Source: Dehalococcoidia bacterium
Lineage (GTDB): Bacteria > Chloroflexota > Dehalococcoidia > Lucifugimonadales > UBA3495
Length of the DNA: 64,000 nucleotides
Assembly (NCBI GenBank): GCA_965115955.1
Contig: OZ220473.1
Coordinates: 2,662,410-2,726,409 of the forward strand
Reading direction: 5' to 3'
Under the pieces are notes generated by a model, which worked only from the letters and a program-made list of their open reading frames with translations, did not search any database and was not told the origin of the DNA. Within the stretch, counting starts at the first letter, position 1; every line of letters begins with the position of its first letter. A program made the translations under genes and the position numbers. This document shows positions 28,174 to 29,642 of the stretch, piece by piece.

Positions 28174-28575
28174 GTGGTAACTTACGAAGTTTTTTTCGGA
28201 GCCTCATCGTCGTTCCTGGTGGTAGGAGTTGGAGCCTTCCTCTGGATACTGTCTGAATTCCGGGCAATGCGCCGTGAATTTCGGGAAGAAAACCAGCGGA
28301 CGCGGGAAGAGCTTCGCGAAGAAAATCAGCGGATGCGGGAAGAGTTTCGGGAAGAAAACCAGCGGATGCGGGAAGAGTTTCGGGAAGAAAACCAGCGGAT
28401 GCGGGAAGAGTTTCGGGAAGAAAACCAGCGGACTCGGGAGGAACTGCGCGAAGAAATCCGCGCAAATGCACAGCGAATATTGGAAGCCCTTTACTTCCAC
28501 CGCCATGACACCGACACTGGCGAGGCGGTCTTCTACCCGCCCACATCCACAACACCGGCGCCGCAAGCGGATTAA
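28174..28575 (+). CDS. membrane-anchored protein with six 11-residue charged repeats (REEFREENQRM)
   Basis: 133 aa with a GTG start. One TM helix (FFGASSSFLVVGVGAFLWIL), then the repeat array, then the tail 'ILEALYFHRHDTDTGEAVFYPP'. The repeats are in-frame multiples of 33 bp. Confidence 0.6.
   Translation: MVTYEVFFGASSSFLVVGVGAFLWILSEFRAMRREFREENQRTREELREENQRMREEFREENQRMREEFREENQRMREEFREENQRTREELREEIRANAQRILEALYFHRHDTDTGEAVFYPPTSTTPAPQAD
28270..28467 (+). repeat. 33-bp tandem repeat x6 (coding)
   Basis: Units start at 28270, 28303, 28336, 28369, 28402 and 28435. Units 3 and 4 are identical and unit 5 differs by 2 nt. Consensus CGGGAAGAGTTTCGGGAAGAAAACCAGCGGATG. Confidence 0.95.
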
Positions 28576-28586
28576 GGAGCGATGCT

Positions 28587-29642
28587 ATGACCACGCTGAA
28601 CCCGCCGAAACTGACTGCAATAGAACTGGGGAAAATAGAGCGGGTTGATGACTTGAGGGTGGCTTGGCCCAGAGAAGCGCAAGATTTCACGCCATGGCTG
28701 GCCGAGAACATCGAAGAGCTGGGCGAAGCATTGGGCATGGAACTGGTATCTGAGGGAATGGAAGTCCCGGTAGGCTCCTTCGCGCTGGATGTTCTGGCTA
28801 CCGCTACCGACGTTTCTCAGAACCAGACTGTAGTCATAGAAAATCAACTGGGAACCACAGATCACGACCATCTGGGCAAGCTGTTAACCTACGCCGCCGG
28901 TAAAACCGCTGATGTAATTGTATGGCTGGCAAAGGAGTTTCGAGGCGAACATCGTCAAGCATTAGACTGGCTTAATCAGCGTACTGGAGAGGACTGCCAG
29001 TTCTTCGGCGTAGCTGTGGAGTTATGGAAGATTGGAGATTCTCCGCTCGCCCCGTACTTCAATTTGGTCTCTGCTCCTAACGAATGGAGCAAGCTTCTAA
29101 AAACAGCCCATCCACTCACTGAAGAGGATGAGATGAATTCCGAGTTTCGCAGGTTGCTCATCGAACGTTTCAAACAGGAAGACCCTCTCCTTATGGCCAG
29201 AAAGAGAACTACAGGAACCGGCGGAATAGTAAAAGCCAGATGGCTGTATATAAAATATCCGGTGCCCGAAGTCAAGCATCACCTTAGTTATGTTGCCGTT
29301 TGGCCTAATGGAGATCTTGGCTTCCAGTTCGTATCAGATATAAGAGGCAGAGATGGACTGGGCTGGACTCGAAGGGTTTTCGAGGATCTCGAAAAGCGCA
29401 AAGGGGAGATCGAGGAAAAGGTTCGAGGAGCCGGGCCATCGGAACGGTTTGAGTGGGAACCTGATTGGAAAAAGCAAGGATTCCGAGTAGGTATTTATCG
29501 CAATGACAACGTGTTCCAGTATCCTGATTCTTGGGACGAATACCACGATTGGATAGTTGAAAAGCTCCGGTTATTTCAAGAACATATCGAGCCTCTTCTT
29601 ATGAAGGAATTTTCAGAGCATGAGCAGCGAACCCGTGAGTGA
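28587..29642 (+). CDS. PD-(D/E)xK nuclease-fold protein with DUF4268-like C-terminus
   Basis: 351 aa. '[13 protein letters not shown]...[45 protein letters not shown]' is the pattern I associate with the nuclease-like N-domain of DUF4268 proteins. GC is visibly lower (about 50%) than in the flanks. Confidence 0.7.
   Translation: [351 protein letters not shown]

Follow-up and report, generated by a model that had tools for sequence, protein, structure and literature searches.

The 351-residue protein encoded on the plus strand near the middle of a 64-kb stretch of the Dehalococcoidia contig OZ220473.1 (the window, by which we mean this whole stretch) is, in what we consider the likely though by no means settled reading, a single-gene, horizontally exchanged, defence-type nuclease of the PDC-S11 family from the PADLOC collection. 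Its gene follows a small gene for a repeat-containing membrane protein, and both lie in a variable slot between a gene for an NHL-repeat beta-propeller (NHL) and a conserved gene for a 357-residue protein (p357). We hold with high confidence to the family membership of the 351-residue protein, to its fold and conserved catalytic residues, to the polymorphism of the slot, to the exchange of alleles within it and to the independence of the two genes, and we infer nuclease activity, an anti-phage role and a target-reading role for the C-terminal DUF4268-like domain.

Family, fold and composition of the nuclease

The PADLOC profile PDLC04911 (PDC-S11) matched the protein over its full length (E 6e-90; residues 12–340 on profile positions 3–314 of 318), and two further PDC-S11 profiles, PDLC04912 and PDLC04914, matched at E 7e-77 and E 4e-67. 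Homologs of about 320–330 residues number more than 6000 in bacteria and archaea, most of them annotated with PF14088 (DUF4268). A first-pass annotation, made by reading the letters of the DNA, had seen here a defence-like cassette of two genes. The PDC-S11 match gives substance to the defence-like character of the nuclease, while the proposed coupling to the repeat protein is unsupported (see below). No family was returned for the protein by NCBIfam, nor for its N-terminal domain by Pfam even at E 10, and a sequence-profile search of the PDB with the 351-residue protein gave no match.

Across an alignment of 51 homologs residues 9–170 are highly conserved and the C-terminal half is hypervariable. 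Six residues, D68, E85, N86, Q87, H95 and Y102, are invariant in this alignment, and the E85-N86-Q87 motif is kept in plasmid homologs from Agrobacterium, Rhodococcus, Burkholderia and Halolamina. The FALDVLA-containing nuclease motif is present in the protein as first described. AlphaFold2 models were obtained with a predicted local distance difference test score of 86 for the full-length protein and 88 for the N-terminal domain alone. In these models DSSP assigns an alpha-beta-beta-beta-alpha-beta core (helix 30–49, strands 53–62, 65–73 and 80–87, helix 93–105, strand 110–115), and the models place D68 within strand 65–73 and E85-N-Q87 within strand 80–87. Replacement of K by Q in the PD-(D/E)XK catalytic motif is a known variant. 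When the N-terminal domain model was compared with the PDB using Foldseek, the best match was NucS (2vld, E 6e-4, root-mean-square deviation (RMSD) 2.1 Å), followed by EndoMS (5gke, E 3e-3), MspJI (E 6.8e-3) and then BamHI, FokI, AspBHI, EcoT38I and Hjc. The full-length model gave no significant PDB match. Against viral models (BFVD), the same full-length model matched a DUF4268 protein (E 2.6e-6), a "restriction endonuclease" (E 5.5e-4), an MmcB-like protein and several PD-(D/E)XK entries. On these models the N-terminal half is a PD-(D/E)XK nuclease fold, and the nuclease-fold pattern that had been read from the letters is borne out by the NucS match and by the invariance of D68, E85 and Q87.

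With a GC content of 49.7% and a third-codon-position GC (GC3) of 0.506, compared with 61–63% and 0.76–0.82 in the flanking genes, the nuclease gene is the lowest-GC 1056-nt segment of the entire 64 kb (mean 0.600, sd 0.025, z = −4.1); its GC3 is also below that of every other among about 60 putative window genes (mean 0.69, sd 0.065). This low GC is no chance fluctuation and the gene is compositionally foreign; an earlier estimate by eye, about 50% against more than 60% in the flanks, was accurate. The repeat gene, at 55.2% GC, is only mildly low. Milder low-GC stretches or genes are found in the window at 17401..19257, 21739..22359 and 44201..45257 (GC below 0.54 or GC3 of 0.51–0.61), all of them less extreme than the nuclease gene.

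Both open reading frames (ORFs) lie where the first-pass annotation had put them (Table 1), and the 23-nt overlap it gave for the 3' end of the nuclease gene holds for the longest ORF of p357. The p357 start in relatives is the equivalent of the GTG at 29635, with which the overlap would be 8 nt. Upstream, the repeat gene ends with TAA at 28575 and the nuclease ATG stands at 28587, the 11-nt spacer containing AAGGAG. A scan of the locus for promoters and terminators, itself uninformative, detected no internal promoter and no terminator.

Table 1. Positions of the two slot genes, their parts and the genes bounding the slot, numbered from the first letter of the window
Feature	Position	Strand	Basis
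NHL-repeat beta-propeller gene, left slot boundary	27150..28094	+	Pfam NHL, E 7e-20
133-residue repeat membrane protein gene	28174..28575	+	ORF, GTG start
33-bp tandem array, 4.9 copies, 92% matches	28279..28439	+	Tandem Repeats Finder; encodes 11-residue REEFREENQRM units
351-residue stand-alone nuclease gene, exchangeable cassette	28587..29642	+	ORF, ATG start; PDC-S11 match; GC
Predicted N-terminal catalytic domain, residues 1–172, PD-(D/E)XK fold, NucS-like	28587..29102	+	Model topology; Foldseek; ratio of nonsynonymous to synonymous substitution rates (dN/dS) 0.03–0.12
D68 codon, predicted metal-binding catalytic aspartate, strand beta-2	28788..28790	+	Invariance; model
E85-N86-Q87 codons, E-x-Q variant of the E-x-K motif, strand beta-3	28839..28847	+	Invariance; model
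Hypervariable C-terminal DUF4268-like domain, residues 176–351, putative target-recognition module	29112..29639	+	PF14088 score; structure match; identity
p357, conserved 357-residue protein gene, right slot boundary	29620..30693	+	Conserved in relatives

Slot polymorphism and allele exchange in relatives

Scanning a genome collection with p357 gave 80 loci, all of them from Dehalococcoidia, SAR202 or Chloroflexota metagenome-assembled genomes, and the states of the slot were counted over 82 distinct related Dehalococcoidia/SAR202 genomes, whose loci carry L numbers here. The gene order thiolase, GMC oxidoreductase, glyoxalase, NHL propeller, slot, p357, UGSC, Trm112p-like, CopD-like, AhpC/TSA, SDR and GGT is conserved, and the adjacency of NHL and p357 is kept in all loci that have both genes. 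The slot is empty (20–350 nt) in 46 of the 82 genomes, these being nearly all the distant relatives and one close relative (L008); this count includes three genomes with unrelated cargo (L076, L077 and L081). An intact nuclease gene occurs without the repeat gene in 13 genomes, with a degenerate, repeat-like mini-ORF encoding a transmembrane (TM) segment and charged residues in five, and with the repeat gene in 11. The repeat gene accompanies a broken nuclease gene in three genomes and stands on its own in four (L019, L066, L074 and L079). In the three broken cases an intact repeat gene lies upstream of a nuclease copy that has lost its N-terminal domain (L018, 5177..5895), survives only as a remnant (L030, about 5508..5636) or is split between its N- and C-terminal domains by a frameshift (L033, 5016..5986).

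The NHL protein is 87–96% identical in close relatives. Nucleotide alignments of close genomes run at about 95% identity through NHL, lose it precisely at the NHL stop codon and regain it precisely at the p357 start. Since more distant relatives have an empty slot, the nuclease gene entered the ancestor of one clade and is not a recent arrival in the window genome. The idea of an acquired module thus stands for the nuclease gene, with the acquisition moved back to the level of the clade. As to the unrelated cargo, a coiled-coil protein of about 250 residues, belonging to no Pfam or PADLOC family, is encoded at the NHL/p357 junction in L076 (5145..5891) and L077 (5175..5942 and 5045..5260), and L081 has at the same place a 123-residue PaREP1-family protein (PF05942, E 5e-7) and a 134-residue partner (5202..5606 and 5600..5971). 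The junction looks like a general, variable hotspot for small cargo.

Between the 29 syntenic genomes holding an intact nuclease gene, median pairwise identity is 94% for NHL and 90% for p357, compared with 78% for the N-terminal domain of the nuclease and 30% (minimum 17%) for its C-terminal domain. The similarity of alleles is uncorrelated with that of their flanks (Spearman −0.10 and 0.04), and that of N-terminal domains is uncorrelated with that of C-terminal domains (Spearman 0.04). L007 and L002 form a mosaic, with 84–95% nucleotide identity in the N-terminal domain and about 50% in the C-terminal domain. In most pairs the synonymous rate (dS) of the nuclease gene exceeds 1 or is saturated, while that of the flanks is 0.2–0.9, which indicates that the alleles predate the genomes in which they now sit. 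The reverse is seen for L013 and L050, where the nuclease gene is 98.1% identical in nucleotides and the flanks are 91.6% and 85.5% identical, with dS of 0.03–0.05 in the gene and 0.4–0.8 in the flanks; comparison of these sequences indicates a recent transfer. The N-terminal domain is under strong purifying selection (dN/dS 0.03–0.12) and the C-terminal domain is more relaxed (0.07–0.44). Every allele is richer in AT than its host: GC3 averages 0.62 in the N-terminal and 0.51 in the C-terminal domain, as against 0.87 and 0.81 in the flanks. The type of C-terminal domain found in the window allele occurs once among the 29 alleles, and when 1.84 billion representatives were searched exhaustively with this domain only 25 matches came back, the best of the same architecture being P0016 at 36% identity.

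Outside SAR202, homologs of the nuclease were found on 64 plasmids, including those of Burkholderia, Rhodococcus, Agrobacterium, Rhizobium, Deinococcus and haloarchaea, and in four phage or provirus records. At the four plasmid loci that we inspected, from four phyla, the nuclease gene is solitary and never beside a repeat or TM partner; its surroundings there include methyltransferases, a restriction endonuclease, a NERD-type nuclease, an integrase and TnpB or IS5. The plasmid homologs in these four other phyla are likewise AT-rich compared with their surroundings.

The repeat membrane protein and the genes beyond the slot

The repeat protein belongs to a lineage-specific family of 113 homologs. 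Their alignment shows an N-terminal TM segment (AF.W..SE.R..R), a charged stalk of 11-residue repeats and an invariant tail (QRILEA.YFHRHD..G.....PPT). The lengths of orthologs lie between 55 and 157 residues, and both the repeat unit and its copy number vary by genome, L004 having five ERREERESDKL units. Close members of the family all lie in the NHL/p357 slot; one distant member was found in an unrelated context without a nuclease gene. Tandem duplicates of the repeat gene occur in L019 (4823..5784, three copies, without a nuclease gene) and in L084 (5001..5821) and L085 (4652..5282), with two copies each. The varied units and copy numbers and the duplications suggest frequent slippage or recombination. 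Matches of the protein to ZorA, LeoA, TraP, ATP-synthase b and an Rz-like spanin were far below cut-offs and were rejected as artefacts of coiled coil and composition. The shadow ORFs 28229..28648 (+), 28204..28566 (−) and 28022..28738 (−) are by-products of the 33-bp repeat array and were set aside as non-genes.

Between L001 and L002 the nuclease gene is 97.9% identical and the repeat-gene region 76%, which places a recombination breakpoint between the two genes. The distribution over the 82 genomes and the plasmid loci gave no evidence in support of a link between the repeat protein and the nuclease system. As far as these sequence comparisons go, the repeat protein is a lineage-specific co-resident of the slot and not an obligate partner of the nuclease.

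To the right of the slot, p357 is conserved at 73–90% identity beside the NHL propeller and the UGSC gene, and Dehalococcoidia/SAR202 genomes hold at least 541 related stretches. Searches of Pfam, NCBIfam and PADLOC returned no family for it, and it is possibly linked in function to UGSC. The UGSC-family gene itself (PF24696, 30716..31294, plus strand) is one frame broken by a single TGA (31046..31048), its translation ...AIGD*GSCSAC... having the U-G-S-C motif of the family at the TGA. Gene calls in relatives are likewise split into two pieces. Downstream of the TGA there is a short palindrome, GTGCA-GTG-TGCAC, which may belong to a selenocysteine insertion sequence (SECIS) element. Judged from its reading frame, the gene product is probably a selenoprotein.

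Candidate mechanism, known systems and alternatives

We suggest that the NucS-like PD-(D/E)XK domain (D68, E85-x-Q87) would cut DNA, with the choice of target falling to the hypervariable C-terminal DUF4268 domain. The outcome would be a Type IV-like restriction without a methyltransferase, in which a feature of the invading DNA, most plausibly a base modification, is recognised and the DNA degraded. We propose such a single-chain, Type IV-like model because the cutter is NucS-like, the arrangement solitary, the C-terminal domain hypervariable and the exchange cassette-like, and because no cognate methyltransferase adjoins the gene in the window or in about 30 syntenic loci, a result that concerns the locus and is compatible with an unlinked copy elsewhere in the genome. 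That defence depends on modification is plausible, in our judgement a little short of probable. Whole alleles, and C-terminal domains separately, are swapped in the slot by homologous recombination through the conserved flanks, and this exchange would yield a population-level set of specificities in one SAR202 Dehalococcoidia clade. The repeat membrane protein, encoded by its own lineage-specific small gene, shares the slot by chance.

The PDC systems are 145 candidates proposed from their embedding in BREX, DISARM and Type I restriction-modification (RM) loci and are untested (10.1101/2024.01.29.577857). The window gene is like PDC-S11 in its full-length profile match, in length and architecture and in being solitary, a single-gene arrangement that we found in 13 syntenic genomes and four plasmid contexts. 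It differs in lying among metabolic genes in a variable slot, whereas PDC-S11 was defined from genes embedded in BREX, DISARM or Type I RM loci; the window allele also carries an 8-residue N-terminal insertion and a rare type of C-terminal domain. Experimental data on DUF4268 proteins exist only for MdgA and MdgB. These single-gene nucleases, widespread across phyla, block T4 but not the unmodified T4-GT7; MdgA degrades T4 DNA in vitro and T4-GT7 DNA much less, its E77A substitution abolishes both nuclease activity and defence, and DUF4268 was proposed by the authors as the substrate-recognition element (PMC12366544). Compared by description only, MdgA and MdgB share with the window protein the union of a nuclease domain and DUF4268 in a single chain, and MdgA has an essential glutamate, E77; the equivalent of E85 of the window protein is E74–E77 in typical PDC-S11 members.

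DUF4268 is also found fused to GmrSD Type IV enzymes (PMC4619093), where it is once more joined to a nuclease that is directed against modified phage DNA and needs no methyltransferase. GmrSD differs in being built of DUF262 (a ParB-like NTPase) and DUF1524 (a His-Me finger) and in having no PD-(D/E)XK domain. MspJI and AspBHI (4f0p, 4oc8) resemble the window protein in combining one reader with one PD-(D/E)XK domain in an enzyme that stands alone without a methyltransferase (fold match E 7e-3). Their reader is N-terminal and SRA-like, whereas the putative reader here is the C-terminal DUF4268, with no detectable SRA similarity. NucS and EndoMS are the closest to the catalytic domain in structure (RMSD 2.1 Å over about 105 residues) at 16% sequence identity. 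The window protein differs from them in lacking the N-terminal DNA-binding and dimerisation domain of NucS, in placing its catalytic domain first and DUF4268 after it, and in its patchy, mobile distribution.

Several points weigh against the reading of the gene as a defence nuclease with a DUF4268 reader. PDC-S11 is itself an experimentally untried candidate family, and the window neighbours are metabolic and form no defence island. MdgA has no matches to PADLOC and DefenseFinder models (PMC12366544), so it may represent a different nuclease family that shares only DUF4268. The fold of DUF4268 gave no match to solved DNA-reader domains in the PDB with Foldseek. Pairwise dN/dS showed no positive selection on the C-terminal domain, omega being below 1 throughout and dS saturated in most pairs. 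Finally, PF14088 scores 21.4 bits with the full protein and 23.5 bits (E 6e-5) with the C-terminal half, both below the gathering threshold of 27. The C-terminal domain of the window allele is a divergent DUF4268, since its PF14088 score is sub-threshold, yet most close homologs carry PF14088 and a viral DUF4268 model matches; the DUF4268-like label given at first pass was correct with that qualification.

Alternative explanations differ in what they take the unit of function to be. The coupling of a membrane repeat protein to the nuclease, as first proposed, would join the two genes in a single module for defence or abortive infection, in which the membrane protein serves the nuclease as sensor, tether or antitoxin. 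Such a module would fit two same-strand genes 11 nt apart with a Shine-Dalgarno sequence in the spacer and neither promoter nor terminator detected between them, which occur in this order in 11 of the 82 genomes and also in L084 and L085. The region from thiolase to UGSC is, however, a compact same-strand array throughout, so adjacency is unspecific. Each gene is present or absent independently of the other in the 82 genomes: an intact nuclease gene lacks the repeat gene in 13 and has only a degenerate one in five, and the repeat gene lacks the nuclease gene in four, three of them in a distant clade (L066, L074 and L079). The families differ in size (113 and more than 6000), no such partner accompanies the plasmid homologs, a distant member of the repeat family has unrelated surroundings, and the breakpoint between the L001 and L002 genes (97.9% against 76% identity) separates the two. 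The proposed coupling does not survive these comparisons; a two-gene module is largely refuted by distribution and seems to us very improbable. The first-pass annotation had held that relatives carrying either gene without the other, in unrelated contexts, together with unexceptional GC or codon statistics, would speak against its proposal; relatives do carry either gene alone, but the GC and codon statistics differ strongly. A selfish element, that is a homing-endonuclease-like or addictive nuclease gene propagating itself into the NHL/p357 junction with no benefit to the host, would agree with the PD-(D/E)XK fold, the low GC, the precise insertion with sharp boundaries between conserved genes, the polymorphism in presence or absence and the recent movement, in at least one case, between diverged genomes. 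Homing predicts near-identical copies, whereas these alleles are deeply diverged, with C-terminal domains at 30% identity and saturated dS. The family also occurs in many unrelated plasmid contexts, the N-terminal domain is under strong purifying selection while several copies have simply decayed, and neither a target-site duplication nor repeat flanks were seen. We regard a selfish element as improbable.

Two other explanations leave the gene a stand-alone nuclease and give it a different task. The best structural matches, NucS and EndoMS (E 6e-4 to 3e-3, RMSD 2.1–2.3 Å), could point to a fast-evolving housekeeping repair nuclease acting on mismatched or branched DNA. Only the catalytic domain matches, however, the NucS N-terminal domain being absent and the domain order different; moreover, the gene is missing from 50 of the 82 related genomes and broken in three, is the most AT-rich in the window, is found on plasmids and in a provirus and is horizontally exchanged, so that a role in repair is hardly credible. 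A Type II-like, sequence-specific restriction endonuclease, or an indiscriminate nuclease activated by a sensor, with the C-terminal domain reading a DNA sequence or a phage protein, is unlikely in our view. In its favour, the fold matches include BamHI, FokI and EcoT38I, methyltransferases are encoded a few genes away from the plasmid homologs, and a hypervariable domain would suit recognition of sequence or of protein equally well. Against this stand the lack of an adjacent methyltransferase in the window and the syntenic loci, the solitary arrangement, which is the rule, and the known DUF4268 proteins, which are modification-dependent where studied by experiment and are otherwise fused to GmrSD Type IV enzymes.

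Returning to the reading as a modification-dependent, single-gene nuclease, the allele series invites an analogy with HsdS of Type I RM systems, in which a conserved scaffold carries divergent, recombining specificity modules at a fixed locus. The likeness is one of analogy only, as HsdS involves other proteins and another mechanism, and the window nuclease holds both functions in one polypeptide. On this analogy DUF4268 might be a modular, swappable target-recognition domain, and the clade might keep a library of Type IV-like nucleases whose readers are exchanged independently of the NucS-like cutter, with the repeat membrane protein and its stalk of variable length as a conceivable optional, lineage-specific modulator; we put this forward tentatively and think it rather doubtful.

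The 351-residue gene belongs to an already catalogued candidate family, and the added value lies in a resolved series of alleles with swapped C-terminal domains at a fixed slot. It also corrects a plausible inference of one system from two adjacent genes. PDC-S11/DUF4268 nucleases are widespread and essentially uncharacterised, and about 30 close genomes that combine a nearly identical catalytic domain with very different C-terminal domains in an identical context constitute a natural experiment on DUF4268 specificity. Little is known of how the SAR202 Dehalococcoidia, uncultured bacteria abundant in the sea, resist phages; for these organisms the locus documents what is probably a small defence hotspot built on a single gene.

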